From: Schmidtea nova
Taxonomy: Eukaryota
Assembly: GCA_044892505.1 (NCBI GenBank)
Contig: CM097882.1
Coordinates: 547,584,001-547,648,000, forward strand
Reading direction: 5' to 3'
DNA: 64,000 nucleotides
Shown: piece after piece, positions 1,908-50,522 of the stretch
Layout: each line of letters begins with the position of its first letter
How positions within the stretch are numbered: position 1 is the stretch's first letter
Translations under genes and position numbers: made by a program
Notes under the pieces: model-generated
The model's database searches: none
Told to the model about the DNA's origin: nothing
The model's input: only the letters and a program-made list of their open reading frames with translations

Positions 1908-2895
1908 TGTTGAGGATACCTAAATTCAAAATAATATAATAAATAAACAAAATTACTTGGGGGAAAATTGTCATGGGGAATGACACGATGGATTGGAGCC
2001 TGGGAAAGAAAACGGAAGTAAAAAGGAATGAGAAATGAGAAGGGGAAACAAAAGAAAAGAAATCAGACAAGCAAAACGAAATAGAGGTCAGCACTAATTA
2101 ACTAGTGCAAATAGGAAGAAATTCTAAAGTTGGGAAAAACAAAAACAACAACAAGAATTTTATCTTGACAACCGGTCAGAGATAATGTGGGCAAAAAGCA
2201 AACAAGCCGAAGCGGCAAAAAGGAGAAAAACAGAGATTATCTTGACAGCTGTCAAAGATAATTCCGTTGCTGAGAAAATGAATGGAAAATCATGTTGGAG
2301 AAATGTAACAACAGCTGATAATTTCAAGTGCTACAAAGTGAAGAAGTATAAAAGGAGGAAGCACCTAAAAACAAACACAACATTGTATACAGAAGTGGTT
2401 AGAGAAAATATTTGAGAGAAAGCGTTTGAGAAAATAAAGCTAGTAAAATTCATTAAAAAGGAAGCAGAAAAACGTCCAGAGAAAGTTAAAGAAGAGTCAA
2501 AAGGAGAATCCAATAATTGAAACCAGAAACTAAGGGATAAGCAGCAGGAGCTTATTCAAGCGTTTGAGAAAATAAAGCTAGTAAAATTCAGAGAGTAAAT
2601 CCAAGTCAAATAAAGAAAACAACCAGTCAAATTACCAATTGTTATACTCCCCAGCAGTGAGTGATTTCGAACATCGATTATACACTAGTGCTATTCTTCA
2701 CTATAGTGTCGTAATAAGCACTGTATAATCAGCTGTAGTTTGAATTTGGTCAGTTCATTGTAAATCGAAGTTATTTGTGATAATCAATAAAATTTCCTGT
2801 TGTCAGTTGTTATTGTGGGTCAATAAAGAGCACGTTTTGGAGTCAGGGTAATAATTTGTTAATTATAAAGTCACCAACGACCCAATAACCCAACA
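1908..2895 (+). repeat. LTR1 (988 bp; lacks the 60-bp 5' duplication present in the other LTRs)
   Basis: TGTTG...CAACA termini; followed by the PBS; AATAAA motifs at ~2786 and 2822. Confidence 0.93.
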
Positions 2896-2900
2896 TTATT

Positions 2901-2918
2901 TGGTGAGCCCGACGTGAT
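2901..2918 (+). promoter_or_regulatory. Primer-binding site, tRNA-Trp type (also 18760-18777 and 34612-34629)
   Basis: TGGTGAGCCCGACGTGAT differs at one position from the ASLV tRNA-Trp PBS TGGTGACCCCGACGTGAT; it lies 5 nt after the LTR end. Confidence 0.8.
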
Positions 2919-3177: not shown

Positions 3178-4270
3178 ATGAGTAGTGAAGATTTGCCAGT
3201 ATCAGTTATTAAAGAAAATAATGATTTTGCAAGTTGTCAAAGATTACCTGTGGAACAATATGGAGGAGATCCGGTTATTTTTGTAGATTTTATGAGTGAT
3301 TACTACATGTATGCAACGGCGTACGGATGGTCTCAAGCGATTATGATTCAGAGATTACCTTTATATCTTAAAGGAGCAGCTAGAGAGGTTTGGCAACAGA
3401 TTGATAAAAAATTAATTGGTAATGATTGGGCAAAGTTGAAAGATGCGTTAGCTGCAAAACTTATCGGAGGAGATATCAAAAGATTAATGCGTCAAAAGTT
3501 TTATAGTAGAGTTCAAAATCCAAATGAAACAGTGAGCGAATTTGCGTATCATTTGTCAACCCTCGCAAGTAAATCATTTGAAGAAGACTCAAAACAACCA
3601 GGCCTAGCCCAACAAATGCAAGAATTAATCCAAGACCAATTTTTGTCAGGAATAAACAAAGAAATAAAAACCGCATTATGCTGTGTAGATTATGATAATT
3701 TTGATGAACTAGTAAAAAAGGCAATGAAAATCGAATTGAATTTGAAGAGCACCAAAAACAAATCTGATGTGTTCGCGATTATTCCAGCTCAAAGGGAAAG
3801 ATCAATTACACCAACCCAAAACAATTGGGAGCCAGAAAATAGATTCCAGCGATCAAAAAGTCCATCACCCAAATGGAGAACCGAGTTAAATATAAATAGA
3901 CCAAGCCGTAATTTCCAAGGCGCTGAGAGATCCAGAGTGATCCAGTGTGAAAATTGCAAGAAGATTGGCCATTATGCAAACCAGTGTTGGTTCAAAAATA
4001 ATTCCGATAGTACACCCAGAAGAATAACCCAAGATTATCGTACAAACGATAGGGGAACCAATTTTCGGAGAACAGTTCCTGATATAAAATCCAATGTTAA
4101 TGAAGTGCAATGTTATCGCTGCGGTAGAAAAGGACATGTTTCCAGAAATTGTTTTTCAAGATCAAGATCACCCTCAACTTCACCTTCACCACAGAGAGAC
4201 AATGTAAATTTGAACGGACAAATTCAATGCCATTTGTGTAGAAATTATGGACATATTGCAAGATCCTGTC
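3178..4270 (+). other. gag: Gag: retrotransposon capsid-like domain plus three CCHC zinc knuckles
   Basis: RLPLYLKGAAREVW and QNPNETVSEFAYHL-type capsid motifs; CX2CX4HX4C at 3946-3987, 4111-4152 and 4228-4269. Confidence 0.9.
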
Positions 4271-7200
4271 CAAGAAATACGAATAAATTTCAAAGGCCAA
4301 TATTAAAGCGAACAATAAGATTTCAAGATGAAAATCCATCGAATGATAATATAGCCTATGTTCAGCAAGATGGTTTTAGAGAAAAGATCGAAAGCGATGT
4401 TAAACAATTGAACCAAAAACTGAATAAATTGATAGCCAAATTTGAATCGGATGAAGAAACAGATACCCACATGATGACGAGGAAAGAGTTGAGCGAAAGC
4501 GAGTCAGAATCAGATAAAGTACAAATCAATAAAGCTAAAGCCGACATACAAAGTGAAAGGAGCACTGTATTTATTGCCAAAATCAGAAAGTTAGTTGCGG
4601 AACCAGACGTAAATTCCCAGAAAATAACAGAATTATTTACGAGGCTAACTAAAATACCTTTAAGTCTGACAAAAATTAAAACTGTTATTAAACTTTGTGC
4701 AGAATGTTATGCAGCAAGTGTGGAAAAACGAGATGTATTCAAAGATTTTATGAGAATATTTGGGCAATATCTACGGAAAAATAAATGGTTAGATCCTATA
4801 TTTATCCAAATGAATGCTCCAGATGGTACAAAATCCAACTATAAAATCGATGCATACGAGAAAGTACGCGAGCTAAAAAGAGAAGTAATGCACAAGTGTG
4901 AAAGTTGGGCGGTGGAACTCAAATTTATGGATCAAGTATTAGAGGATGGCGAATTCTTGGTAGATTATGGATTAATTCCTGGCGGTGAAAATGAAATGCA
5001 AATGACGAATATGATCGCCAAGGAAAAAACAGTAACAAATGACTCTGACGAAATCAGATTTGAACTAATGGAAGCATTGCTTAAAGGAAACACAGGTGAC
5101 ATTATTGATAAATTAAACAATATTTTGAATTTAGAACTCAAAGTAGAAGACAAGTTAAAAATTCTAGACTGTGTTAGACCCTATATGAATGCGGAAAACG
5201 AATATGGTAAAACAATAAAAACTCTTATTCAAAAATTTGGTCAAGAATTCAGGGAAGAAGGGATTTATAATGAGCCATTCGTAGTACTGTTAAAAATAAA
5301 TGGTCAAGGAGTAGAATATACGGATGAACATTGGTATACGAAAGTGAATAAAATTCGTCGAAGAACAGCAGAAATCATGGGCAATGATGGAATAATTGTG
5401 CTAACGTATAAAGGTTTTGAGCTAGACGATGATGAATACTTATTTGATTGTGGATGTATGCCACGAAAGCGTAACGAAGATAGATTTCTTACGGATCAAA
5501 ATTTTATTAATGATATAATTGCAGTGAAACAAGTGGATACAGATGAAGTAGAAAAAGGTTATAAAATTGAATTACCAGAGTTCGGCAGTGAAACAATGGA
5601 TAATGAGGATGAAATATCAGAGGAACAAGAAATGACAGAACATGGAGAGGAACAGGAAACTGAGCAGAGAATTGAGGAAAGTATAATAAAAACGGAAGTT
5701 AAAAATGAAGCGTATATGACAGAAATGGAGATTGATAATATTACGGAGGAAAGACAACGCAAAGATTTATACGAGGTGAGATGTGAAATAATACAGAGAC
5801 TCCAAGGTGAGAGAGGTCAGAAGGAATTAAAAGAGACTGAAAAGGTTGTACGTGCGCTGGCAAATGAATTATATGGCGAAGCAGCAGAGAAAACACAAGT
5901 AGAATTATATGTGAGAAAAATTGCAAAAAAGTTGAAAAAGAGACTTTATGTGGTCTTGAGATATGTAAAAGACAACAAGGAATTCTGTGATGATGGAGTG
6001 ATAACCAATATGATGACAGGAGAAATGGATAGAGATTTAGTATTGACAATTACGAGTTATATTTTGTTAGAAATCGGGACACACGATTATTTAAATATGG
6101 AAAAACGAGATGAAGTAATCAAAAAGGCGAGCAAAGTATTGTATAAGCATGTGGGCAAATGGATAAAGGAAATTGGAGGCTGGGAGAAATTAGTTAAACA
6201 AAAAACAGAATCATCAGTCGAAAAGAGAGAAAGTTACGAAGGAATACCGAGAGGTAAACCTATGAAACTTCCATTTATAATGTTTATGATCATAATATTA
6301 TGTGCGATTACGACGCAAACAACATCTTTAATTGCGTACGATTGTTCTCAAACCAAAATGGGAAAGATTTATTCCATGGTGGACATGACAGAATGTTCTG
6401 ATGCACACCCAATGAGTTTAACAGTTGAAAATGATGTAAAGTATCATGTATACCAAGAATCAGGCTTTAGACATGCGGTAGTAAGAGAGTGCATTGTAAA
6501 GAGAACGAGCTTTGTGTTTTATTGTGGCAAATGGAGTCACACATCACTAATTAAAATGTATTCAATCCCAAGGCCAGTTGATGTAAACCCAGAAAATTGC
6601 ATGGCTGCGTTTCAAACAGGGGAAGTGAAAATTAGCCCCGAGGTTAAATTGAAAGCTAAATTAAATCATGCTATACGAGAAACAATTATCGAAAAAGGAA
6701 CAATAAAGGCTAATGGGGATTGTAAAGGAGAACCGTACAAAATGAATGGAGAAATTATTGATCAAATTGTTGTGATGGAAGAGTATTTGACGGAATTGAG
6801 AGAATTCCAAGGAGCTTTTGATGACGACACAGGCAAGTTACAAACGCATCCATTCTGCAATATGAAGCAGGCTAGCTGTCAAACAGGAGAATCAATTTTG
6901 GTGTACGAAGTTAAGACAAATCTATGTAATTTAATACATTTGAAAACAATGAGTTTTAATGAAATGAGTGGAGAACAGTTGAGAGAAAGACCGGAAAATT
7001 TGAATGTGGAGGCAAAACCGGACATGACAATCAGAATTACCCCATTGAGAACCAGAAAAACTCCAGTTGTTTTGATGTCAACTTTATTAGATGACGGTAT
7101 GAGATTTATTCGAAAAAATGTGGTAAATAAATGTGGTCAAACGGTGTATGAGACCAATTATAAAGGAATTTATGTATCCAAGAAAAGAGTCGAGGAAGCT

Positions 7201-10200
7201 CAAGTCCAAATACATAGTACGGATATCAAATTGACAAATTATTTTAATAACAAAATAGACTATTTGTTCCACTACAGTCAAAGTATTATGGAAAATATTT
7301 ATAGAGAAATGATATTAAACGATTGTAAGTTGAATAAAGAAATACTACGGAACAGAATGGCGATGGCAGTCACAAATCCAAACTTGGTAGCACCTATGTT
7401 AATATCAGAAAACGGTGTGTTTGCAAGAGTATTTGGAGAAGCATTGTATAGCTATAAATGCAACGAGATTCCCGTGCAAATTATAAAGTACGAGCAATGT
7501 ACCAATGAATTGCCAGTAAGTGTTAATGGTAAATTGAGATTCATGGAGCCAATAACTCGAATATTGTTGGAAGAAGACGCGAAACCTAAACTTTTAAAAT
7601 GTAACCGATTGCTCGCACCATTATATCGACTAACATCAGATTCGTGGATATCATTACCAGATCATAAAGGAGTAAGAAATCCAGAAAAATTAGAATTAAC
7701 AAAACTTGAATATTTAATAAATTTTACATCATTGGACAAATTAGCACAAACTGGGTTGTATTCTCAAGAAGATGTTGAAGAAGCCCGAAGAAATCTACTA
7801 TTTCCATCAAAGAAAGAACGAGTCATTACTGAAATGATTGATACTATATTACCAAGTGGTGAAGGCAAAGTAAATTATGATTATTTACTAACACCAGATC
7901 ATTATAAGAAAGCAACGTACAATACGATGAAAAAGATATGGGGGAAATTCATGTTTTTGGGACAAGCATGTGCAGGATTAATTGGAATTTATGTTATGTT
8001 CGTGGTGATTAAAGTGATAATATCTCAAATACTAACTACTCATCAGCTATATGTTATTTCGGGATGGTCCTGGAAACTGATTATCGGATGTATTCCATTT
8101 CTGGCAAGATTTGTAATTACAAAGCATCAATATAAAGAGATGGGGAAAGTCAAGTCACGACTAAATAATGACGGAAGAGACATTGATTCGAGTTCGGACA
8201 GCGAGAGTGGGAATGGGGGTAAAGTAAAAGTACCTCCAATATATTATTATAAAAACAGTAAAATTAAAATTAATGATATACGAGAAAAATCTAAATCTTT
8301 GAATTTATTACAATCGGTACCACAAACAAGTGAAACAGACACATTCAGTCGATTATGCATTCCAAAAACTTTTCTACCAACAGCACCAATATATCCAGTA
8401 GAGAAGTTAAAAGAAATGAGACCAGTTGAAAACATTGAATTGACAAATGAGCAAATCGCACCAACTAGTGCGGAAATTGAAAGGAGAAACATGCTGGGAT
8501 TACCAGGAAATTATGCATTAATGACAATTGGAAACAAAGGAAGACAGCCAAGAATATGGATACAAGTGAATAAACATAGAGTCGAAGCATTAATAGATTC
8601 AGGCTCAAGCAATACAATATTATCAGATAAATTAATCAATTCAGGGGAAAGAGCACGAATGAAAAGCACAGAAGAAGTTGTACGATCAATGACGAAAAAT
8701 AAATTAAATATCATTGGACAGATCAGAGTAAAACTCAATATTGGAAATAAAGAAATTGTTCATAATGCGCTAATAATGAAAGATAGCCCAGTAATGTGTT
8801 TGGTAGAGATGGATGTGTTGGAGCAATTGGAAGGAGTCTCTCTTGATTTGAAAACCGGAAATCTAATTGTAGGAAAAACAGGAAAAGTTATTCATGAAAC
8901 GGGAGATGTGTTTCTAAATCAAACGTTAAGAGTACCACCTCAGAGTGAAGTTATTTGTTATGTGAATACAATGGGAGTTCCAGACGATGAATTTATATTT
9001 CAACCAAGTGAGAATTTAATTGCCAAATATGATACTCCAATATGCGACGAAGTAGTGAAAGTTCAAGATCAATTAATTCCTGTTCGCATCACTAACAATA
9101 GCGACAAAGAAGTGTCATTTAAACCAAAAACGAAATTAGGAAAGCTAACAAAAATCCTAAAAATCAATAATAAAAGATTACCAAAAAATATTAAAATATA
9201 CAAAGAACCCCAAGTTGACAGTGCAGAGTTGACGCAAGAGCAAACACAAACATTTACAAAATTGTTGAGAAAATATCAAGATATTTTTGCGAAACATGAG
9301 TATGATTTGGGAGTAACTCATATAATTGAACATGAAATTCCATTAATTGATGAAACTCCAATTAAATTACGACCATACAGAATTCCGTATGCGCATCAAG
9401 ACGAAAGCGATAGACAAATAAAGGCTATGAAAGAATTCCATATTATTAGAGACAGTTTTTCACCATTTTCTTCCTCTATTGTTGTAGTCAAAAAGAAAGA
9501 CGGTGAACTGAGATTTTGTATTGACTATCGAAAACTGAATCAAGTGACAAGAAAGGATACGTATCCCATTCCGGTTCCTCAGGAAATGTTTGACAAAATG
9601 GGAGAAGCTCAATATTTTACTGTTATTGATTTAAACAAAGGCTACAATCAATTCAAAGTTAAAGAGACAGATAAAGGGAAAACAGCGTTTTCAGATGGAA
9701 AAGGTTTGTATGAATTTAATGTTTTACCATTTGGTTTAACAGGTGCACCAGCGACATTTCAAAGAGGAATGAATTTTGTGCTGCGAGACATTCCACACGC
9801 CTTGGTATATATTGATGATATTATAATCTTCTCAGGTAATTTCGAAGAGCACATGAGAGATGTGGAAACAGTATTTAAACGGCTCAGAGAAGCAAATCTC
9901 AAAATTAAACCATCAAAATGTGAATGGGGAAAGTCAGAGGTAGTGTATGTTGGACATATTATTTCACGAAAAGGTCTACAACCAAATCCAGAAAATGTTA
10001 AGAAAATTAAAGATTATCCAACTCCAAAAAATGTTGATGATATTAGACAATTTCTCGGGTTAGCAAGCTATTATAGAAAATTTATTAGAAACTTTGCACA
10101 TGTTGCTCAACCATTAACGATGCTATTAAAGAAAACCACAAAATTCGTGTGGGGCAAAGCTCAGCAGGATATTTTCGAAATACTCAAACAAAAGTTAATG

Positions 10201-12822
10201 ATGAATCCAATATTACGATGTCCTGATTTCACAAAGACATTTATGTTAATGACGGACGCAAGCGGTTTTGCGTTGGGAGCGGTATTAGGACAAAAGGTTG
10301 AAGGAGAAAAAGATCATGTAATCGCATATGCTAGTCGATCATTGAAACCACATGAAAAAAACTATTCAACAATCGAAAAAGAAACTCTTGCTCTAGTATA
10401 TGGCATAACAACATTTCGACAGTACTTAGTTGGCCGAAAATTCATTGTCTATACAGACCATAATCCATTACAATGGTTAATGAAGCATCGAGATGCAGCA
10501 AGTAAATTAATTAGGTGGTCGTTAGCCTTGCAAGAATATGACTTTGAAATCAAATATCGAACAGGAAAATCAAATGCTAATGCTGATACCTTGTCTAGAA
10601 TTCCAAATGAGGAAATTAATAATAACCAGGAAGAAATAAATTTAAGAGATACTGTATTTGCAGTAGTTAAAGCAGCAAATAATATGGCAGAGCTACAGAG
10701 AGATCAAGAAATGGATGAGGAGCTGAAACAAATAATAAAACATACAGTAATAATGAAAAAAGATAAAGAATTGAAACAATTAATCGAGGAAAAACATAAA
10801 TATGTTATTCACAGAGGTATATTAAAATATATTAAAAATGATGAATTGTTAATAGTGGTTCCAATAATACATCGAAATACGTTATTATTACAGTACCATG
10901 ACGGGGCATTGGGAGGACATTTGTCAGCAAGAAAAACACTGTCGCGAATAAAACTAAAATATTTCTGGAATACAATGGAGCAGGATGTAAAGCAATGGTG
11001 CAACACTTGCAAAATATGCCTGACTCGAAGAAATACTGGAAAGAAAATAAAGGTTCCTCTAAACCCAATGCCAATACCAGCAGCGCCAATGGAATTTTCA
11101 GCAATGGATATCATCGGGCCTTTACCCGAGACAACGAATGGAAATAAATACATTTTGGTATTCTGTGATTATTTAACCAAATGGCCAGAAGCGTTTGCTA
11201 TGCCAAACCAAAAGGCAGAAACTGTTGCACAAATATTTGTTGAAGAAATCATATTTAGATATGGAGTTCCAAAGAAATTGCTAACAGATCAAGGGACAAA
11301 CTTTCAGAGTGATCTGTTTAAATCTATTACAGAATTATTTGGTATATATAAATTGAGCACATCACCATATCATCCACAAACAGATGGGTTAGTGGAAAGA
11401 TTTAATGGTACATTAATTAATATGATCTCATCCTATGTGAATCGAAAGCAAAAAGACTGGGATCTGTTCATTAGACCATGCTTATATGCCTATCGAAATT
11501 CAGTAAATGAGAGTACGGGAGAAACGCCCTTTTATCTTATGTACCTAAGACGAAATAATATGCCGATCGATTTAGAGTTCCAATCACCAACTTCCCAATA
11601 TTTAGAGATTCCAAATTATAAAGTTGCTCTGCAAGAACGTTTACAATCCGCTTGGACTCAAGCCGGATTAAAAATAAAATATCGACAGGAGCAATATAAA
11701 GAAAGTTACGATAAAAAAGCGCATGCGCACGGAATGAAAATTGGCGACCTAGTGTATCTAAATAAGCCAGAGCCAACAAAGGGACTCTCAACAAAATTAC
11801 AAAGACCATTCAAAGGTCCGTATACAGTCTGTGATGCGACTGCAACAAATCTAAAATTGCGACCAATTAATAACAAAAAAGCAGAAACAATTGTAGTTCA
11901 TGCCAATAGATGTAAGAAAGTGCCTGAACTGGAACATCAGCTACGAAATAAACAAAAGAAAACAAATGATGAAATAGAAATCCGGCAAAAGTTCCAGAAA
12001 AATCCAACTCCATTGAGTTATATGAATAAAGTTTTATTCATAACGACAGTTTTAATAAATATGGTAACGAACACAGTTGGAATAAAAATGGATATACCAG
12101 ATGCGGTCAATAAATTACCATCTTTAGAGAAAATAGACGTATACTTAACGAAAGTAGTTCTCACTCTTAATCTGTCAATGAACAATTACAAAAAACCACT
12201 TCGTAATAAAGGAATTTATACAAACAATCAATTGTTTGAAAGAAATGTTCAAATTGAGATGATATACTGGAATAAAACGAATCAAGTTCAAATTGAAAAT
12301 TGTGATACTACAATAATTGTTGCATATAAAGCTCAGGTCGAGGGAAAAGTAACTATTATTATAAATAATAAAATTAAGGTGGTATTGAATGAACACCGAA
12401 ACAGAGCGAGAGTCAGTACTCAGAACTCAGGAACCGAATCACAAACAAGCAAACTCCTTATAGAAAACCAATGCTGCAAAGGGAAAACCAATCCAGACCG
12501 ATGGCAAACTATTTGCATTAAAGACAGACAGATTTATTTCGTTCTCGATCAACCCTCTAAAGAAACCCTTGATCACAATCTGACTCTACCATTAACTCTT
12601 TCATGTATAAAAATCGAAAACTTTTCATTAAACTATAAAGAAAATTCATTCACTAACAATTGTGTTGATATGTTCTCTGTATGTATCATAAGGGCAAGAC
12701 AAAGAGTGATCTTGCTCGTTTGCTTTATCCTCATTTCACGAACTGACAAAAGAAACAATTCTAATTGTGATTTTCAATATTCTGAGCCGCAGATATCAAT
12801 GTGGTTGGAATCAAGGGTGTAG
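3178..12822 (+). CDS. Copy 1 uninterrupted polyprotein (3214 aa from first ATG): Gag-2xUBL-Bcl2-like-Env-PR-RT-RH-IN-C-terminal extension
   Basis: Single open frame 3133-12822 containing CCHC knuckles, LIDSGS, YIDD, TDAS, HHCC/DDE and GPY motifs. Confidence 0.93.
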   Translation: MSSEDLPVSVIKENNDFASCQRLPVEQYGGDPVIFVDFMSDYYMYATAYGWSQAIMIQRLPLYLKGAAREVWQQIDKKLIGNDWAKLKDALAAKLIGGDIKRLMRQKFYSRVQNPNETVSEFAYHLSTLASKSFEEDSKQPGLAQQMQELIQDQFLSGINKEIKTALCCVDYDNFDELVKKAMKIELNLKSTKNKSDVFAIIPAQRERSITPTQNNWEPENRFQRSKSPSPKWRTELNINRPSRNFQGAERSRVIQCENCKKIGHYANQCWFKNNSDSTPRRITQDYRTNDRGTNFRRTVPDIKSNVNEVQCYRCGRKGHVSRNCFSRSRSPSTSPSPQRDNVNLNGQIQCHLCRNYGHIARSCPRNTNKFQRPILKRTIRFQDENPSNDNIAYVQQDGFREKIESDVKQLNQKLNKLIAKFESDEETDTHMMTRKELSESESESDKVQINKAKADIQSERSTVFIAKIRKLVAEPDVNSQKITELFTRLTKIPLSLTKIKTVIKLCAECYAASVEKRDVFKDFMRIFGQYLRKNKWLDPIFIQMNAPDGTKSNYKIDAYEKVRELKREVMHKCESWAVELKFMDQVLEDGEFLVDYGLIPGGENEMQMTNMIAKEKTVTNDSDEIRFELMEALLKGNTGDIIDKLNNILNLELKVEDKLKILDCVRPYMNAENEYGKTIKTLIQKFGQEFREEGIYNEPFVVLLKINGQGVEYTDEHWYTKVNKIRRRTAEIMGNDGIIVLTYKGFELDDDEYLFDCGCMPRKRNEDRFLTDQNFINDIIAVKQVDTDEVEKGYKIELPEFGSETMDNEDEISEEQEMTEHGEEQETEQRIEESIIKTEVKNEAYMTEMEIDNITEERQRKDLYEVRCEIIQRLQGERGQKELKETEKVVRALANELYGEAAEKTQVELYVRKIAKKLKKRLYVVLRYVKDNKEFCDDGVITNMMTGEMDRDLVLTITSYILLEIGTHDYLNMEKRDEVIKKASKVLYKHVGKWIKEIGGWEKLVKQKTESSVEKRESYEGIPRGKPMKLPFIMFMIIILCAITTQTTSLIAYDCSQTKMGKIYSMVDMTECSDAHPMSLTVENDVKYHVYQESGFRHAVVRECIVKRTSFVFYCGKWSHTSLIKMYSIPRPVDVNPENCMAAFQTGEVKISPEVKLKAKLNHAIRETIIEKGTIKANGDCKGEPYKMNGEIIDQIVVMEEYLTELREFQGAFDDDTGKLQTHPFCNMKQASCQTGESILVYEVKTNLCNLIHLKTMSFNEMSGEQLRERPENLNVEAKPDMTIRITPLRTRKTPVVLMSTLLDDGMRFIRKNVVNKCGQTVYETNYKGIYVSKKRVEEAQVQIHSTDIKLTNYFNNKIDYLFHYSQSIMENIYREMILNDCKLNKEILRNRMAMAVTNPNLVAPMLISENGVFARVFGEALYSYKCNEIPVQIIKYEQCTNELPVSVNGKLRFMEPITRILLEEDAKPKLLKCNRLLAPLYRLTSDSWISLPDHKGVRNPEKLELTKLEYLINFTSLDKLAQTGLYSQEDVEEARRNLLFPSKKERVITEMIDTILPSGEGKVNYDYLLTPDHYKKATYNTMKKIWGKFMFLGQACAGLIGIYVMFVVIKVIISQILTTHQLYVISGWSWKLIIGCIPFLARFVITKHQYKEMGKVKSRLNNDGRDIDSSSDSESGNGGKVKVPPIYYYKNSKIKINDIREKSKSLNLLQSVPQTSETDTFSRLCIPKTFLPTAPIYPVEKLKEMRPVENIELTNEQIAPTSAEIERRNMLGLPGNYALMTIGNKGRQPRIWIQVNKHRVEALIDSGSSNTILSDKLINSGERARMKSTEEVVRSMTKNKLNIIGQIRVKLNIGNKEIVHNALIMKDSPVMCLVEMDVLEQLEGVSLDLKTGNLIVGKTGKVIHETGDVFLNQTLRVPPQSEVICYVNTMGVPDDEFIFQPSENLIAKYDTPICDEVVKVQDQLIPVRITNNSDKEVSFKPKTKLGKLTKILKINNKRLPKNIKIYKEPQVDSAELTQEQTQTFTKLLRKYQDIFAKHEYDLGVTHIIEHEIPLIDETPIKLRPYRIPYAHQDESDRQIKAMKEFHIIRDSFSPFSSSIVVVKKKDGELRFCIDYRKLNQVTRKDTYPIPVPQEMFDKMGEAQYFTVIDLNKGYNQFKVKETDKGKTAFSDGKGLYEFNVLPFGLTGAPATFQRGMNFVLRDIPHALVYIDDIIIFSGNFEEHMRDVETVFKRLREANLKIKPSKCEWGKSEVVYVGHIISRKGLQPNPENVKKIKDYPTPKNVDDIRQFLGLASYYRKFIRNFAHVAQPLTMLLKKTTKFVWGKAQQDIFEILKQKLMMNPILRCPDFTKTFMLMTDASGFALGAVLGQKVEGEKDHVIAYASRSLKPHEKNYSTIEKETLALVYGITTFRQYLVGRKFIVYTDHNPLQWLMKHRDAASKLIRWSLALQEYDFEIKYRTGKSNANADTLSRIPNEEINNNQEEINLRDTVFAVVKAANNMAELQRDQEMDEELKQIIKHTVIMKKDKELKQLIEEKHKYVIHRGILKYIKNDELLIVVPIIHRNTLLLQYHDGALGGHLSARKTLSRIKLKYFWNTMEQDVKQWCNTCKICLTRRNTGKKIKVPLNPMPIPAAPMEFSAMDIIGPLPETTNGNKYILVFCDYLTKWPEAFAMPNQKAETVAQIFVEEIIFRYGVPKKLLTDQGTNFQSDLFKSITELFGIYKLSTSPYHPQTDGLVERFNGTLINMISSYVNRKQKDWDLFIRPCLYAYRNSVNESTGETPFYLMYLRRNNMPIDLEFQSPTSQYLEIPNYKVALQERLQSAWTQAGLKIKYRQEQYKESYDKKAHAHGMKIGDLVYLNKPEPTKGLSTKLQRPFKGPYTVCDATATNLKLRPINNKKAETIVVHANRCKKVPELEHQLRNKQKKTNDEIEIRQKFQKNPTPLSYMNKVLFITTVLINMVTNTVGIKMDIPDAVNKLPSLEKIDVYLTKVVLTLNLSMNNYKKPLRNKGIYTNNQLFERNVQIEMIYWNKTNQVQIENCDTTIIVAYKAQVEGKVTIIINNKIKVVLNEHRNRARVSTQNSGTESQTSKLLIENQCCKGKTNPDRWQTICIKDRQIYFVLDQPSKETLDHNLTLPLTLSCIKIENFSLNYKENSFTNNCVDMFSVCIIRARQRVILLVCFILISRTDKRNNSNCDFQYSEPQISMWLESRV
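4550..5463 (+). other. Two tandem modules, each a helical segment plus a ubiquitin-like domain (UBL1 ~4795-5004, UBL2 ~5275-5463)
   Basis: LKFMDQVLEDGEFLVDYGL and LTYKGFELDDDEYLFDCG align with ubiquitin LIFAGKQLEDGRTLSDYNI; both are preceded by an FGQ(Y/E)(L/F)R...P motif. Confidence 0.65.
5761..6200 (+). other. Bcl-2-like helical domain
   Basis: BH2-like LYKHVGKWIKEIGGWEKL (6139-6192) versus Bcl-2 LNRHLHTWIQDNGGWDAF; BH3-like VVRALANEL; divergent BH1-position segment GEMDRDLVLTITSY. Confidence 0.65.
6262..8130 (+). other. env: Envelope glycoprotein (chuvirus-G / gB-like class III fusogen type) embedded in the polyprotein
   Basis: Signal-like MKLPFIMFMIIILCAITTQTTS then LIAYDC; 14 ectodomain Cys; CGQTVYETNY, GEALYSYKC, CTNELPV, FMEPITRIL and CNRLLAPLY motifs; TM at 7948-8022 and a second hydrophobic GWSW segment at 8047-8118. 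Confidence 0.8.
8542..8875 (+). other. pro: Retropepsin aspartic protease
   Basis: ALIDSGSSNT (catalytic D at 8596). The C-terminal motif is LVEMD in copy 1 and LVGMD in copies 2 and 3. Confidence 0.88.
9260..10605 (+). other. pol: Reverse transcriptase and RNase H (Ty3/Gypsy type)
   Basis: LRFCIDYRKLN, IDLNKGYNQ, PFGLTGAPATFQR, YIDD (9808), TDASGFALGAVL, NYSTIEKETLA, YTDHNPL and NANADTLSR. Confidence 0.95.
10800..11920 (+). other. int: Integrase (HHCC zinc finger, DDE core, GPY/F module)
   Basis: HDGALGGH...CNTC; D 11107, D 11287, E 11395; PFKGPY at ~11806-11823. Confidence 0.95.
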
Positions 12823-12959
12823 TAAGCTACTATTTTGCATGTAATGACAATATACAGTATTATTTCCCTTATATTTCCTTAGTTAATGATTCTTTAATAG
12901 TCAATTGATAATCTTTTGTTGTAAAATATGTTGTTAAAATTTAAATTATATTGATGTAA

Positions 12960-13035
12960 TTTGATTGGTCGAATAATCACACTGTAGGGGGAGAGAATTT
13001 TTGGATATAAAGATGGCGGTTGTTTTCAGAGTTTG
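12960..13035 (+). promoter_or_regulatory. Putative internal promoter for ORF2
   Basis: ATTGG (reverse CCAAT) at 12964, TATAAA at 13006 and YY1-like AAGATGGCGG at 13010, ~90 bp upstream of ATG 13100. Motif inference only. Confidence 0.45.
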
Positions 13036-13099
13036 ACTTGGAAAATCTTTGGAAAAAAAAAAAAAAAAAAAAAAGATCAAAATTAAATCTAAAGGAAGA

Positions 13100-14320
13100 A
13101 TGGAAAAAATCAACAGACCAGCAAGATTATACGGGAAATATTATCAAGAAAGAAGAAGCTATACAGACAAAGTTATCGTAATAGAAGAAAATTTGAAAAT
13201 TCCTAATTGGGTAAGGTTAGGGAATGAAGAAATGAGAATATGTATGGTGGAATTGGAATGGAAATCCAATACGAAATTTTCAGAAGTGTTAATAAGAAGA
13301 AACGAAGAGACATGGGAGGTTCATGTTTTTAAAGGAAGAGTAGAAATTTTAGAGAATGATGCAACGGTTCTACAAACATTGGAAACTAATTCATCATGGA
13401 AGATATCAAAAGAAATATGGCATAAGAAGATGCGAGCAGCCAATGGAACGGCTTGCATTGTTTTAGAATGCCGAGGACCAGCTCCAACAATCCCGGCATT
13501 AGAACAAATTATGACCAATGAAGAAGAAAATAGGTTACTCCCGATAACCGAAGAAATGTTAAAGCACCGAAAATCATTTTTGAGAAAACAAATGACAAAA
13601 GAAGAAATTAGAAAAAATATTATGTTCATGGACGCGGAATATGGCGTAAGTGAGCAAAACAAGATGGTTCCGCTGTCTATTTGTTTAATAAACTATGACG
13701 GAAGAATATTGTATAACTCATTAATAACCCCCAGAGAAAAGCTAAAAAATTACGTTACCCAAATTCACGGCATCACAGAGAAGATGTCAAGAAATCAAGA
13801 TGATCAATACAAGAGTCAGAGGAAAATTCAGCAATTAACGGCAAGGAAAATCTTGATTGGACATGATCTCCAAAGCGAACTATTGTACAGTGGAGTACAG
13901 ACAAGGGATCTATGGGGTATTCGCGATTTGGCGGCAGCTCGAGCATTGACAAAAAGAAGAGTCACAAGGAACGGGCAATGGTATAAATTGTCAATAGTAG
14001 CCGAAGAAATATGTGGCATCAGAATGCAAAAAGGGAATCATACGGCATTAGAAGACACTGATGCAATTAGAAGAATTTATTTGGCCATAGAAAATGAATG
14101 GCAGGATGATGTAGAGTGTGCTGAAACAACCAGCAAAAGAAAATATTCGTTAGAAGAGTATAGGAAAAGAAAGGCTCCAACAACCAGTGAGCAGATGGAG
14201 GAACCAAAAGAGAAGAGGAAAGCAGAAGTTCAGCAAATGGAACAAGACATTCACATGGTGGAACACATGCATATTGCTCGTAAGAAAACTGCGAAAATGA
14301 TGGTTGAGAAAAAAACTTGA
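13100..14320 (+). CDS. ORF2 copy 1 (406 aa): cupin-like N-terminal domain plus DEDDh 3'-5' exonuclease (ISG20/REXO4-like)
   Basis: ExoI FMDAEYG (13631/13637), NYVTQIHGIT, ExoII LIGHDLQSEL, IRDLA, ExoIII HTALED (14039/14054); identical protein in all three copies. Confidence 0.85.
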   Translation: MEKINRPARLYGKYYQERRSYTDKVIVIEENLKIPNWVRLGNEEMRICMVELEWKSNTKFSEVLIRRNEETWEVHVFKGRVEILENDATVLQTLETNSSWKISKEIWHKKMRAANGTACIVLECRGPAPTIPALEQIMTNEEENRLLPITEEMLKHRKSFLRKQMTKEEIRKNIMFMDAEYGVSEQNKMVPLSICLINYDGRILYNSLITPREKLKNYVTQIHGITEKMSRNQDDQYKSQRKIQQLTARKILIGHDLQSELLYSGVQTRDLWGIRDLAAARALTKRRVTRNGQWYKLSIVAEEICGIRMQKGNHTALEDTDAIRRIYLAIENEWQDDVECAETTSKRKYSLEEYRKRKAPTTSEQMEEPKEKRKAEVQQMEQDIHMVEHMHIARKKTAKMMVEKKT

Positions 14321-14516
14321 TTTATTTAAAAATGCAATTGTGGAAATGGACAAAATAATGATGCAACAAAATAGTGTTGAAAAAGGAAATCAAACAAAAG
14401 AAGGAATAGTGGTCGATAAGATGATCACGTTCAATGGTGAGGAATTGGAAGCAACAAAGGTTGTCGTCACGTATAGAGGAAGAAACCAAACTATCAAAAT
14501 TGTAATTGATAAATAG
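14304..14516 (+). CDS. Probable C-terminal continuation of ORF2 in the +1 frame (also 30162-30374 and 46012-46224)
   Basis: Overlaps the ORF2 stop at an A7 run (14309-14315); removing one A fuses the two frames. Confidence 0.5.
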   Translation: MRKKLDLFKNAIVEMDKIMMQQNSVEKGNQTKEGIVVDKMITFNGEELEATKVVVTYRGRNQTIKIVIDK

Positions 14517-17500: not shown

Positions 17501-17692
17501 ATTATAAAAAAAAATGGGTAGTGCTATTGTTATTACAGTTAGTATGAAAATTGTTATCCCTATTATCGTAAACTAGTATTTATTTAAAAATAATAAATTA
17601 GAATATTATAGAGAAGCGTTTATTGGAAAATAATAGTGGGGGCATTGTACGAAAGATAACTTAAGATTTTAATTCGAGGACGAATTTTTTTT
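14517..17692 (+). repeat. Long 3' non-coding region rich in (ATT)n/(ATC)n microsatellites, partly N-masked, with a ~110-bp internal direct repeat (16335-16445 and 16690-16800)
   Basis: Direct reading of the sequence; the same layout occurs at 30375-33544 and 46225-49456. Confidence 0.85.
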
Positions 17693-17704
17693 AAAGGGGG
17701 GAGA
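17693..17704 (+). promoter_or_regulatory. Polypurine tract (also 33545-33556 and 49457-49468)
   Basis: AAAGGGGGGAGA lies 2 nt before the TGTTG LTR start. Confidence 0.9.
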
Positions 17705-17706
17705 TA

Positions 17707-18754
17707 TGTTGAGGATACCTAAATTCAAAATAATATAATAAATAAACAAAATTACTTAGGGGAATTACTTGAGGATACCTAAATTCAAAATAATATAATA
17801 AATAAACAAAATTACTTGGGGGAAAATTGTCATGGGGAATGACACGATGGATTGGAGCCTGGGAAAGAAAACGGAAGTAAAAAGGAATGAGAAATGAGAA
17901 GGGGAAACAAAAGAAAAGAAATCAGACAAGCAAAACGAAATAGAGGTCAGCACTAATTAACTAGTGCAAATAGGAAGAAATTCTAAAGTTGGGAAAAACA
18001 AAAACAACAACAAGAATTTTATCTTGACAACCGGTCAGAGATAATGTGGGCAAAAAGCAAACAAGCCGAAGCGGCAAAAAGGAGAAAAACAGAGATTATC
18101 TTGACAGCTGTCAAAGATAATTCCGTTGCTGAGAAAATGAATGGAAAATCATGTTGGAGAAATGTAACAACAGCTGATAATTTCAAGTGCTACAAAGTGA
18201 AGAAGTATAAAAGGAGGAAGCACCTAAAAACAAACATAACATTGTATACAGAAGTGGTTAGAGAAAATATTTGAGAGAAAGCGTTTGAGAAAATAAAGCT
18301 AGTAAAATTCATTAAAAAGGAAGCAGAAAAACGTCCAGAGAAAGTTAAAGAAGAGTCAAAAGGAGAATCCAATAATTGAAACCAGAAACTAAGGGATAAG
18401 CAGCAGGAGCTTATTCAAGCGTTTGAGAAAATAAAGCTAGTAAAATTCAGAGAGTAAATCCAAGTCAAATAAAGAAAACAACCAGTCAAATTACCAATTG
18501 TTATACTCCCCAGCAGTGAGTGATTTCGAACATCGATTATACACTAGTGCTATTCTTCACTATAGTGTCGTAATAAGCACTGTATAATCAGCTGTAGTTT
18601 GAATTTGGTCAGTTCATTGTAAATCGAAGTTATTTGTGATAATCAATAAAATTTCCTGTTGTCAGTTGTTATTGTGGGTCAATAAAGAGCACGTTTTGGA
18701 GTCAGGGTAATAATTTGTTAATTATAAAGTCACCAACGACCCAATAACCCAACA
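17707..18754 (+). repeat. LTR2 (1048 bp, shared by copies 1 and 2)
   Basis: PPT upstream and PBS downstream; 60-bp duplication at the 5' end; private C>T at 18237. Confidence 0.93.
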
Positions 18755-28957: not shown

Positions 28958-30178
28958 ATGGAAAAAATCAACAGACCAGCAAGATTATACGGGAAATATT
29001 ATCAAGAAAGAAGAAGCTATACAGACAAAGTTATCGTAATAGAAGAAAATTTGAAAATTCCTAATTGGGTAAGGTTAGGGAATGAAGAAATGAGAATATG
29101 TATGGTGGAATTGGAATGGAAATCCAATACGAAATTTTCAGAAGTGTTAATAAGAAGAAACGAAGAGACATGGGAGGTTCATGTTTTTAAAGGAAGAGTA
29201 GAAATTTTAGAGAATGATGCAACGGTTCTACAAACATTGGAAACTAATTCATCATGGAAGATATCAAAAGAAATATGGCATAAGAAGATGCGAGCAGCCA
29301 ATGGAACGGCTTGCATTGTTTTAGAATGCCGAGGACCAGCTCCAACAATCCCGGCATTAGAACAAATTATGACCAATGAAGAAGAAAATAGGTTACTCCC
29401 GATAACCGAAGAAATGTTAAAGCACCGAAAATCATTTTTGAGAAAACAAATGACAAAAGAAGAAATTAGAAAAAATATTATGTTCATGGACGCGGAATAT
29501 GGCGTAAGTGAGCAAAACAAGATGGTTCCGCTGTCTATTTGTTTAATAAACTATGACGGAAGAATATTGTATAACTCATTAATAACCCCCAGAGAAAAGC
29601 TAAAAAATTACGTTACCCAAATTCACGGCATCACAGAGAAGATGTCAAGAAATCAAGATGATCAATACAAGAGTCAGAGGAAAATTCAGCAATTAACGGC
29701 AAGGAAAATCTTGATTGGACATGATCTCCAAAGCGAACTATTGTACAGTGGAGTACAGACAAGGGATCTATGGGGTATTCGCGATTTGGCGGCAGCTCGA
29801 GCATTGACAAAAAGAAGAGTCACAAGGAACGGGCAATGGTATAAATTGTCAATAGTAGCCGAAGAAATATGTGGCATCAGAATGCAAAAAGGGAATCATA
29901 CGGCATTAGAAGACACTGATGCAATTAGAAGAATTTATTTGGCCATAGAAAATGAATGGCAGGATGATGTAGAGTGTGCTGAAACAACCAGCAAAAGAAA
30001 ATATTCGTTAGAAGAGTATAGGAAAAGAAAGGCTCCAACAACCAGTGAGCAGATGGAGGAACCAAAAGAGAAGAGGAAAGCAGAAGTTCAGCAAATGGAA
30101 CAAGACATTCACATGGTGGAACACATGCATATTGCTCGTAAGAAAACTGCGAAAATGATGGTTGAGAAAAAAACTTGA
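28958..30178 (+). CDS. ORF2 copy 2 (cupin-like plus DEDDh exonuclease)
   Basis: Protein identical to copy 1. Confidence 0.85.
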   Translation: MEKINRPARLYGKYYQERRSYTDKVIVIEENLKIPNWVRLGNEEMRICMVELEWKSNTKFSEVLIRRNEETWEVHVFKGRVEILENDATVLQTLETNSSWKISKEIWHKKMRAANGTACIVLECRGPAPTIPALEQIMTNEEENRLLPITEEMLKHRKSFLRKQMTKEEIRKNIMFMDAEYGVSEQNKMVPLSICLINYDGRILYNSLITPREKLKNYVTQIHGITEKMSRNQDDQYKSQRKIQQLTARKILIGHDLQSELLYSGVQTRDLWGIRDLAAARALTKRRVTRNGQWYKLSIVAEEICGIRMQKGNHTALEDTDAIRRIYLAIENEWQDDVECAETTSKRKYSLEEYRKRKAPTTSEQMEEPKEKRKAEVQQMEQDIHMVEHMHIARKKTAKMMVEKKT

Positions 30179-44807: not shown

Positions 44808-46028
44808 ATGGAAAAAATCAACAGACCAGCAAGATTATACGGGAAATATTATCAAGAAAGAAGAAGCTATACAGACAAAGTTATCGTAATAGAAGAAAAT
44901 TTGAAAATTCCTAATTGGGTAAGGTTAGGGAATGAAGAAATGAGAATATGTATGGTGGAATTGGAATGGAAATCCAATACGAAATTTTCAGAAGTGTTAA
45001 TAAGAAGAAACGAAGAGACATGGGAGGTTCATGTTTTTAAAGGAAGAGTAGAAATTTTAGAGAATGATGCAACGGTTCTACAAACATTGGAAACTAATTC
45101 ATCATGGAAGATATCAAAAGAAATATGGCATAAGAAGATGCGAGCAGCCAATGGAACGGCTTGCATTGTTTTAGAATGCCGAGGACCAGCTCCAACAATC
45201 CCGGCATTAGAACAAATTATGACCAATGAAGAAGAAAATAGGTTACTCCCGATAACCGAAGAAATGTTAAAGCACCGAAAATCATTTTTGAGAAAACAAA
45301 TGACAAAAGAAGAAATTAGAAAAAATATTATGTTCATGGACGCGGAATATGGCGTAAGTGAGCAAAACAAGATGGTTCCGCTGTCTATTTGTTTAATAAA
45401 CTATGACGGAAGAATATTGTATAACTCATTAATAACCCCCAGAGAAAAGCTAAAAAATTACGTTACCCAAATTCACGGCATCACAGAGAAGATGTCAAGA
45501 AATCAAGATGATCAATACAAGAGTCAGAGGAAAATTCAGCAATTAACGGCAAGGAAAATCTTGATTGGACATGATCTCCAAAGCGAACTATTGTACAGTG
45601 GAGTACAGACAAGGGATCTATGGGGTATTCGCGATTTGGCGGCAGCTCGAGCATTGACAAAAAGAAGAGTCACAAGGAACGGGCAATGGTATAAATTGTC
45701 AATAGTAGCCGAAGAAATATGTGGCATCAGAATGCAAAAAGGGAATCATACGGCATTAGAAGACACTGATGCAATTAGAAGAATTTATTTGGCCATAGAA
45801 AATGAATGGCAGGATGATGTAGAGTGTGCTGAAACAACCAGCAAAAGAAAATATTCGTTAGAAGAGTATAGGAAAAGAAAGGCTCCAACAACCAGTGAGC
45901 AGATGGAGGAACCAAAAGAGAAGAGGAAAGCAGAAGTTCAGCAAATGGAACAAGACATTCACATGGTGGAACACATGCATATTGCTCGTAAGAAAACTGC
46001 GAAAATGATGGTTGAGAAAAAAACTTGA
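44808..46028 (+). CDS. ORF2 copy 3 (cupin-like plus DEDDh exonuclease)
   Basis: Protein identical to copy 1 from ATG 44808. Confidence 0.85.
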   Translation: MEKINRPARLYGKYYQERRSYTDKVIVIEENLKIPNWVRLGNEEMRICMVELEWKSNTKFSEVLIRRNEETWEVHVFKGRVEILENDATVLQTLETNSSWKISKEIWHKKMRAANGTACIVLECRGPAPTIPALEQIMTNEEENRLLPITEEMLKHRKSFLRKQMTKEEIRKNIMFMDAEYGVSEQNKMVPLSICLINYDGRILYNSLITPREKLKNYVTQIHGITEKMSRNQDDQYKSQRKIQQLTARKILIGHDLQSELLYSGVQTRDLWGIRDLAAARALTKRRVTRNGQWYKLSIVAEEICGIRMQKGNHTALEDTDAIRRIYLAIENEWQDDVECAETTSKRKYSLEEYRKRKAPTTSEQMEEPKEKRKAEVQQMEQDIHMVEHMHIARKKTAKMMVEKKT

Positions 46029-49470: not shown

Positions 49471-50518
49471 TGTTGAGGATACCTAAATTCAAAATAATAT
49501 AATAAATAAACAAAATTACTTAGGGGAATTACTTGAGGATACCTAAATTCAAAATAATATAATAAATAAACAAAATTACTTGGGGGAAAATTGTCATGGG
49601 GAATGACACGATGGATTGGAGCCTGGGAAAGAAAACGGAAGTAAAAAGGAATGAGAAATGAGAAGGGGAAACAAAAGAAAAGAAATCAGACAAGCAAAAC
49701 GAAATAGAGGTCAGCACTAATTAACTAGTGCAAATAGGAAGAAATTCTAAAGTTGGGAAAAACAAAAACAACAACAAGAATTTTATCTTGACAACCGGTC
49801 AGAGATAATGTGGGCAAAAAGCAAACAAGCCGAAGCGGCAAAAAGGAGAAAAACAGAGATTATCTTGACAGCTGTCAAAGATAATTCCGTTGCTGAGAAA
49901 ATGAATGGAAAATCATGTTGGAGAAATGTAACAACAGCTGATAATTTCAAGTGCTACAAAGTGAAGAAGTATAAAAGGAGGAAGCACCTAAAAACAAACA
50001 CAACATTGTATACAGAAGTGGTTAGAGAAAATATTTGAGAGAAAGCGTTTGAGAAAATAAAGCTAGTAAAATTCATTAAAAAGGAAGCAGAAAAACGTCC
50101 AGAGAAAGTTAAAGAAGAGTCAAAAGGAGAATCCAATAATTGAAACCAGAAACTAAGGGATAAGCAGCAGGAGCTTATTCAAGCGTTTGAGAAAATAAAG
50201 CTAGTAAAATTCAGAGAGTAAATCCAAGTCAAATAAAGAAAACAACCAGTCAAATTACCAATTGTTATACTCCCCAGCAGTGAGTGATTTCGAACATCGA
50301 TTATACACTAGTGCTATTCTTCACTATAGTGTCGTAATAAGCACTGTATAATCAGCTGTAGTTTGAATTTGGTCAGTTCATTGTAAATCGAAGTTATTTG
50401 TGATAATCAATAAAATTTCCTGTTGTCAGTTGTTATTGTGGGTCAATAAAGAGCACGTTTTGGAGTCAGGGTAATAATTTGTTAATTATAAAGTCACCAA
50501 CGACCCAATAACCCAACA
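49471..50518 (+). repeat. LTR4, terminal 3' LTR (1048 bp)
   Basis: PPT upstream; followed by ATAT and unique flank rather than a PBS. Confidence 0.93.
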
Positions 50519-50522
50519 ATAT
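50519..50522 (+). other. Right target-site duplication ATAT
   Basis: Matches 1904-1907. Confidence 0.85.

Follow-up and report, generated by a model that had tools for sequence, protein, structure and literature searches.

A predicted ISG20/REXO4-type DEDDh exonuclease as a conserved accessory gene behind pol in envelope-carrying Ty3/gypsy elements of Schmidtea nova

Exonucleases captured by mobile RNA genomes are known from nidoviruses and arenaviruses, with coronavirus nsp14 and arenavirus NP as examples, and among LTR elements from a single case, that of bdelloid rotifers. There, the Vesta and Juno LTR elements, and Athena/Terminon, carry an ORF3 for a DEDDy (RNase D-like) exonuclease (PMC5408684; cited again in PMC6338049), for which no selection has been shown and whose function is unproven. 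The Burro elements of planarians, over 30 kb in length, encode a single polyprotein in which gag, ubiquitin- and BCL2-like segments and a mononegavirus-like env precede protease and pol, with accessory ORFs besides, and no exonuclease is named for them there (PMC6431247, section 7). The gag-env-pol order is also found in elements of flatworms, nematodes and bryozoans (PMC13524379). The gene described here, ORF2 of Burro-like elements of Schmidtea nova, is a fixed, conserved accessory gene behind pol in a clade of envelope-carrying Ty3/gypsy elements. It encodes a predicted ISG20/REXO4-type DEDDh exonuclease. Cells employ enzymes of this class to combat viruses and R-loops, whereas here one is a fixed gene of a recently active clade. 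In a literature search, outside which lay the Burro-naming paper, Repbase and supplements, neither a DEDDh/ISG20-type ORF nor the fusion of a beta-helix domain to a nuclease was described for gypsy elements, whether Burro-like or not, and there was no support for a nematode Cer element with an exonuclease ORF. Term look-ups in PMC13524379, PMC10084718, PMC12440569 and PMC8532177 likewise returned no mention of such an ORF. A small, well-folded protein with a clear catalytic site offers a tool to ask how animal LTR elements counteract the RNA defences of their hosts, for which few effectors are known.

The window, 64,000 nucleotides of contig CM097882.1, contains three tandem units of ~15.85 kb that are 99.94-99.96% alike in self-comparison, with four LTRs between them. 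The array is a single insertion that was amplified in tandem, because the same four bases, a target-site duplication, border both of its ends (1904-1907 and 50519-50522). The element itself is 16.8 kb long and belongs to the Ty3/gypsy group (Metaviridae), as seen from its LTRs, primer-binding site, PR-RT-RH-IN order and target-site duplication, and a single frame holds its gag, env and pol, with ORF2 separate. All of its features lie on the plus strand. The 5' LTR of the array (1908..2895, TG...CA, placed by self-comparison and boundary analysis) is followed by a primer-binding site at 2901..2918, presumably for tRNA-Trp, and by a polyprotein of 3214 aa (3178..12822, from the ORF list and Pfam) that is frameshifted in units 2 and 3. 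The LTR common to units 1 and 2 lies at 17707..18754 by self-comparison, with a polypurine tract before it, and the final LTR, delimited by the target-site duplication, at 49471..50518. Every LTR but the first begins with a duplication of ~60 bases (17707-17768, and correspondingly in LTRs 3 and 4). In all three units, ORF2 is separated from the polypurine tract by a stretch of ~3 kb (14520-17700) that is very AT-rich and has trinucleotide repeats. ARAGORN found no tRNA genes in the window, and Rfam gave no matches within 12700-15200.

In the polyprotein, gag, which has zinc knuckles, is followed by segments with a weak likeness to ubiquitin and BCL2, and then by env, protease, RT, RNase H, integrase and a tail. 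The env segment, in frame between gag and protease, is a Monjiviricetes-type fusion glycoprotein (PF24664, E 5e-88). The ubiquitin-like (PF00240, E 0.045) and BCL2-like (PF00452, E 0.056) segments between gag and env are both below cut-offs; the former has ISG15 matches (E 0.03), the latter no PDB match, and a second ubiquitin-like segment no relevant match. This order is that of Burro, with the ubiquitin-like and BCL2-like matches being weak, and the architecture by itself would suggest a planarian flatworm as the probable host. Because the element is smaller, and because ankyrin, BIR and MATH domains are absent from the Pfam matches of the window polyprotein, it is Burro-like rather than Burro in the strict sense.

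ORF2 is read three times in the window, at 13100..14320, 28958..30178 and 44808..46028, the second and third copies being located by self-comparison, with 0 differences in 1221 nt. An earlier note on this DNA had described a stand-alone gene, which holds in that ORF2 is a 406-codon ORF apart from the polyprotein, but not in the sense of independence, as the gene belongs constantly to the element. That note had also taken the gene to be intact in three copies, even where the polyprotein is broken. The copies are instead identical copies of one tandem insertion, all of them frameshift-truncated to 406 aa, and so provide no evidence of selection. In the best 30 of 102 listed genomic matches, where rank reflects similarity to the 406-aa protein, a protein of 471 aa is read in 25, and the shorter form, caused by a frameshift in an A-run (14309..14315, from comparison with genomic copies), in five, namely all three copies of the window together with L024 and L025. 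Thus the window copies, as placed by the ORF list and genomic copies, should be viewed as a truncated variant and not as the family standard. The frameshift may be an assembly slip. The 65 residues lost, whose out-of-frame coding region occupies 14321..14516, include a short beta-rich motif that is conserved in families A-D. They are dispensable in cis, because L024, a separate element, combines the truncated ORF2 with an unbroken polyprotein and LTRs identical over 842/842 bases; the 406-aa variant there came about either by transposition or by renewed slippage.

The exonuclease domain spans residues 157-337 (13568..14110) and is defined by PF00929, PDB matches, a structural model and an alignment. 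The PF00929 match reaches 29 bits against a curated cut-off of 24, and NCBIfam adds sub-threshold DnaQ/PolC matches. A first search of PDB sequences placed ISG20 (E 6.9e-7) and ISG20L2 (E 1.6e-6) at the top, and a further search returned ISG20L2 (2e-13), ISG20 (5e-11) and SDN1 (E 4.8e-6), so that SDN1, a plant small RNA degrading nuclease, is among the top three. An AlphaFold (AF2) model of residues 1-337, built from 18 alignment rows (pLDDT 91.9, pTM 0.85), is closest to ISG20 (Z 19.1, rmsd 2.1, 159 residues aligned), with the next row at Z 15.0 (PolC); other scores include epsilon (14.3), SDN1 (14.1), ERI-1/3'hExo (12.7), nsp14 (10.3 and 10.0) and RNase D (9.2). By sequence and in the model, the closest relatives of the ORF2 nuclease are thus of REXO4/ISG20 type. 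The alignment with ISG20 predicts the catalytic residues as D178 (13631), E180 (13637), E260 (13877), H314 (14039) and D319 (14054), within the motifs D178-x-E180, G254-H-D...E260 and H314-x4-D319. The glutamate at ExoII (motif II) makes this a DEEDh variant. The modelled domain is assigned to the DEDDh class, with an RNase H-like exonuclease fold and a complete D-E-E-H-D site, and activity is predicted. The earlier note's identification of a REXO4/ISG20-like enzyme with E at ExoII is borne out by these results, and the fold searches that it proposed for both halves of the protein gave ISG20 for the nuclease and a double-stranded beta-helix for the N-terminal domain. As active coronavirus nsp14 is itself DEEDh and tolerates a change of E to D (PMC7654266), the glutamate would be compatible with activity.

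Human ISG20, ISG20L2 and REXO4 (PF00929) share with ORF2 the fold, motif spacing and five catalytic positions, and differ from it in sequence (~21% identity), in the residue at motif II, in lacking the beta-helix domain, in falling outside its clade and in not being element-encoded. Viral ExoN enzymes are likewise exonucleases of mobile RNA genomes, and nsp14 shares the D-E-E-H-D set, but ORF2 has lower fold similarity to nsp14, no zinc fingers and a separate origin, and it belongs to a reverse-transcribing element. The rotifer ORF3 resembles ORF2 in being an extra ORF behind pol for a DnaQ-family 3'-5' exonuclease (predicted here) with E as its third acidic residue. Unlike the rotifer ORF, ORF2 is of DEDDh, ISG20/REXO4 type with His at motif III in place of the Tyr general base of the DEDDy class, scores far higher against ISG20 than against RNase D, is fused to a beta-helix domain, displays clear purifying selection, and is present together with env, whereas ORF3 stands in place of it. 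ORF2 is a capture independent of the rotifer ORF3. A Pol II transcript that terminates in an LTR does not, as a rule, require a separate 3' step, and the gene is absent from most LTR elements, both of which count against a role of ORF2 in maturing or protecting the 3' end of element RNA or in processing the tRNA primer, a role that we regard as distinctly unlikely. In its favour, 3'-end maturation has been proposed for the rotifer DEDDy ORFs (PMC5408684), and ISG20L2 is an RNA-processing enzyme by the title of PDB entry 7yw5.

Residues 1-126 (13100..13477) form, in the model and by fold matches, a double-stranded beta-helix domain of the cupin / 2OG-oxygenase-like fold, with a pLDDT of 89.6 when modelled alone. 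The matching folds listed are cupins, pirins and AlkB-type 2OG oxygenases (best Z 9.4, rmsd 3.1, 93 aligned; Foldseek E 2e-4), with the cupin and 2OG-oxygenase branches tied. The vaccinia C16 N-domain was considered as a specific relative and rejected, for it stands at Foldseek rank 2 yet has a Z of 7.3, tied with many others. Sequence searches with this domain gave a weak Pirin_C_2 match (E 0.026, in 4 of 7), nothing useful against PDB sequences and Atlas matches of at most 0.82. In an alignment of 23 rows, H75 is invariant and P35, N36 and E123 near-invariant, while H108 is not conserved, and neither an HxH...E...H nor an HxD...H metal-binding set is conserved in these rows, in agreement with the earlier description of a cupin-like half that lacks the metal-binding His pair. 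The domain may therefore be viewed as a candidate non-catalytic binding or scaffold module. A basic motif follows the nuclease at residues 346-358 (14135..14173); the earlier note had remarked on it as resembling an NLS, and it is common to families A-D and F, with nuclear localization as its putative role.

At least five families in the S. nova genome (A, B, C, D and F) have ORF2, with the same layout and primer-binding site, and with polyproteins in B, C, D and F that are ~45-79% identical to that of the window, depending on the region. Because LTR pairs among the further families are 99.1-100% identical, these families are, by that measure, recently active. Several are very abundant, with 2733 and 2814 candidate matches, of which 102 and 88 were scored; in family B, where ORF2 has 487 aa, the 88 scored matches are 97-100% identical. 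To the 20 RT loci taken from 97 RT matches, as those not pairable by eye with a listed ORF2, an ORF2 homologue could be assigned downstream in 18 (one a fragment), and the remaining two had none within 8 kb, one of these also being without integrase. A profile search beyond this genome returned 62 representatives with E values no higher than 1e-30, and linkage to a retroelement was seen on metagenome contig L128, where a pol with ankyrin repeats, a Burro trait, is followed by two ORF2 homologues in tandem, of which one keeps the canonical D-E-D-H-D site and the other has lost its site. The pol on this contig is of Burro type with a second protease, the dead-site and intact-site homologues occupy L128:7283-8740 and 9043-10371 (also on L129), and an ORF with a weak ubiquitin-like match comes after the pair. 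Among viral contigs, 44 pattern matches included no relative. Basal D-E-D-H-D homologues (clusters P0039, P0046 and P0010) lie on public contigs of mostly 15-17.6 kb from many assemblies; at about one element length, these contigs could be collapsed repeats or particles. In six of the 20 diverged loci compared below (L032, L034, L035, L037, L038 and L040), a divergent start of gag is followed by the polyprotein tail and ORF2, with no env or pol between; these are derivatives with internal deletions in which the nuclease gene is retained. Its retention is not evidence of selection, because a copy that does bear pol groups with them.

In a quick tree built from 148 rows, with 21 dropped for low coverage and 9 near-duplicates skipped, 69 rows fall into a single clade (SH-aLRT 98). 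Outside it lie the cellular REXO4/ISG20-like rows, labelled by motif only, among them an exon of the host REXO4-like gene. A careful tree of 36 chosen rows recovered the same clade (support 98/91). The capture of the nuclease is old. A tree that joins the host REXO4-like exon to the ORF2 clade was not rejected (p-AU 0.23), so that the search for a donor lineage by DEDDh phylogeny, as suggested at the outset, yielded one old clade but no identified donor. The host also has single-copy-like exonuclease genes that we take, mainly from their motifs, to be ERI-1-like (L051) and, at L094/L126 and L095/L127, REXO4-like (two exons) with a REXO1-like exon. The ERI-1-like ORF forms a long separate branch far from the ORF2 clade, ERI-1/3'hExo ranks well below ISG20 in the fold comparison, and no SAP-type domain is found in ORF2, whose N-terminus is the beta-helix; the analogy to ERI-1 drawn in the earlier note is therefore weak.

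Within the clade, the site reads D-E-E-H-D in 29 rows, D-E-D-H-D in 20, is partial and consistent in 3 and degenerate in 17, such that the full D-E-(D/E)-H-D set is present in 49/69 rows, with 3 more consistent over the part covered; outside the clade, D-E-D-H-D is present in 70/79. Because the 17 rows with a lost site persist, one of them beside an intact-site copy on L128, a non-catalytic role presumably exists in part of the clade. Such rows are also among the points in favour of ORF2 as a suppressor of piRNA/siRNA silencing, which would trim or destroy small RNAs or the precursors of these, while paralogues with a dead site would serve as RNA-binding decoys. This reading is possible though doubtful. 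It draws on the sequence and fold similarity to SDN1, on the very high copy number of several families and on the PIWI control of Burro elements in planarians (PMC8532177). ORF2 is, however, not ERI-1-like by tree or fold rank, and a suppressor acting in trans would probably also free competing elements. Mature piRNAs are, in addition, PIWI-bound and 3'-methylated, which hinders 3' exonucleases.

Selection was estimated by the Nei-Gojobori method against 20 diverged loci of 50-76% identity, which represent about two lineages and are thus not 20 independent tests. For the exonuclease, dN is 0.147-0.272 and dS 1.97-3.85 in 11 loci, with saturation in the other 9, and dN/dS between lineages is at most about 0.14. 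The N-terminal domain has a dN/dS of 0.11-0.24 in all 20, and pol/env of 0.18-0.32 in the 5 loci that have these genes. The nucleases of families B, C and D retain 68-72% identity, with saturated synonymous sites. Decayed copies, which carry stops, keep D178, E180 and D319 in 18/20 each and H314 in 20/20. Counts from young copies (28 loci; 13 synonymous to 16 nonsynonymous private changes, and 4 to 2 shared) were set aside because the loci had been ranked by protein likeness. On these rates ORF2 is under strong purifying selection. The dN/dS comparison across families, which the earlier note had proposed, found this selection together with a complete catalytic site among the families examined, and not a dead protein evolving freely. 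A captured host gene that is carried as a functionless passenger could be read from the stops in decayed copies, from a dN/dS of 0.5-0.9 among closely related old copies and from the truncation in the window. Such near-neutral values are found only between copies separated mainly by decay after insertion, where they are expected, whereas the low values between lineages, the site complete in five families and the single old clade all oppose it. The passenger reading is refuted by this pattern unless the alignments are wrong, and its probability is close to nil.

In the same copies, exonuclease dS is 2 or more whereas pol dS is 0.17-0.29, and because synonymous divergence of the nuclease is so far above that of pol, the comparison points to exchange of a 3' module between lineages independently of RT. 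The polyprotein tail past integrase (12145-12822), which has no family match, diverges fast, with 33-46% identity against 82-95% for pol, and seems to move together with ORF2 in this module. Exchange of this kind bears against a role for ORF2 in the particle with RT, in which it would trim primers or hybrids, or proofread, and so help to maintain large genomes as nidovirus ExoN does. A further difficulty is that ORF2 lies outside Gag-Pol and so has no built-in route into particles; moreover, no ISG20/REXO4-type enzyme is known to be a proofreader. The fold is that of the DnaQ family (as seen in the PolC and epsilon scores), ORF2 is constantly linked to pol, the elements are large (16.8 kb here and over 30 kb in Burro) and nidovirus ExoN is a precedent (PMC7968707), but we nonetheless consider this role unlikely. 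Complex prediction for RT-RNase H with ORF2 residues 1-337 scored 0.01 against a mark of 0.34 and is read neither way. More speculative still, and very improbable in our estimate, is that the exonuclease edits RT errors or clears hybrids beside RT and thereby allows retroelement genomes of 17-30 kb, with dead duplicates as decoys or regulators; if true, an editing nuclease beside RT would be the reverse-transcribing counterpart of nidovirus ExoN.

The sequences upstream of ORF2 suggest that its message may be separate from that of the polyprotein, because lineage A has promoter-like boxes and families B, C, D and F a donor-hairpin-acceptor stretch. In the window, CCAAT-like and TATA-like boxes at 12962..13035, recognized by eye, form a putative internal promoter, and by eye these are partly kept in nine diverged copies of lineage A. 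In families B, C, D and F, a donor-like site is followed by a hairpin and then by an acceptor-like site directly before the ATG. The hairpin, of about 50 nt within a short intron-like stretch (L082:1400-1500, L104:825-925, L103 and L143), has z values of -2.2 to -5.6, with several pairs changed on both sides among 6 rows of 4 families. The region upstream of ORF2 in the window does not fold (z +1.2), and the hairpin is absent from this lineage.

We tentatively favour a reading, drawn by analogy, in which ORF2 is a separately expressed 3'-5' nuclease that clears element-derived RNA and RNA:DNA hybrids and thereby avoids host defences. The protein would be made apart from the polyprotein, through its own promoter or through splicing, and might enter the nucleus by way of the basic motif. 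It would degrade element-derived ssRNA and the RNA strand of RNA:DNA hybrids, and the removal of these by-products could keep host defences untriggered, to the benefit of the element. Human REXO4, which acts alongside RNase H1, degrades ssRNA and prefers RNA:DNA hybrids, and cGAS becomes active when REXO4 is lost (PMC12915616), although the substrate analogy is to relatives of ~21% identity and DEDDh enzymes are versatile (PMC7968707). By-product clearing would be the simplest role because ORF2 is probably expressed separately, the element has env and host-facing domains, and REXO4-type enzymes provide the analogy. Against it count the nearness of SDN1, by both fold and sequence, which fits silencing suppression, and the persistence of the 17 clade rows that lack the catalytic residues.

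Rearranged and neighbouring sequences provide some minor observations. At L144-L145 (G000:C1:92177001-92197000), a deletion in a family F copy joins a cut integrase in frame to ORF2, to create a frame of 2633 codons. The flank of the window array at 905-1843 holds a 312-codon frame that by eye, and with no Pfam support, looks like part of the DNA polymerase from a large DNA transposon, and the opposite flank, at 53452-54216, holds a piggyBac-like transposase fragment (PF13843, E 3.4e-36).
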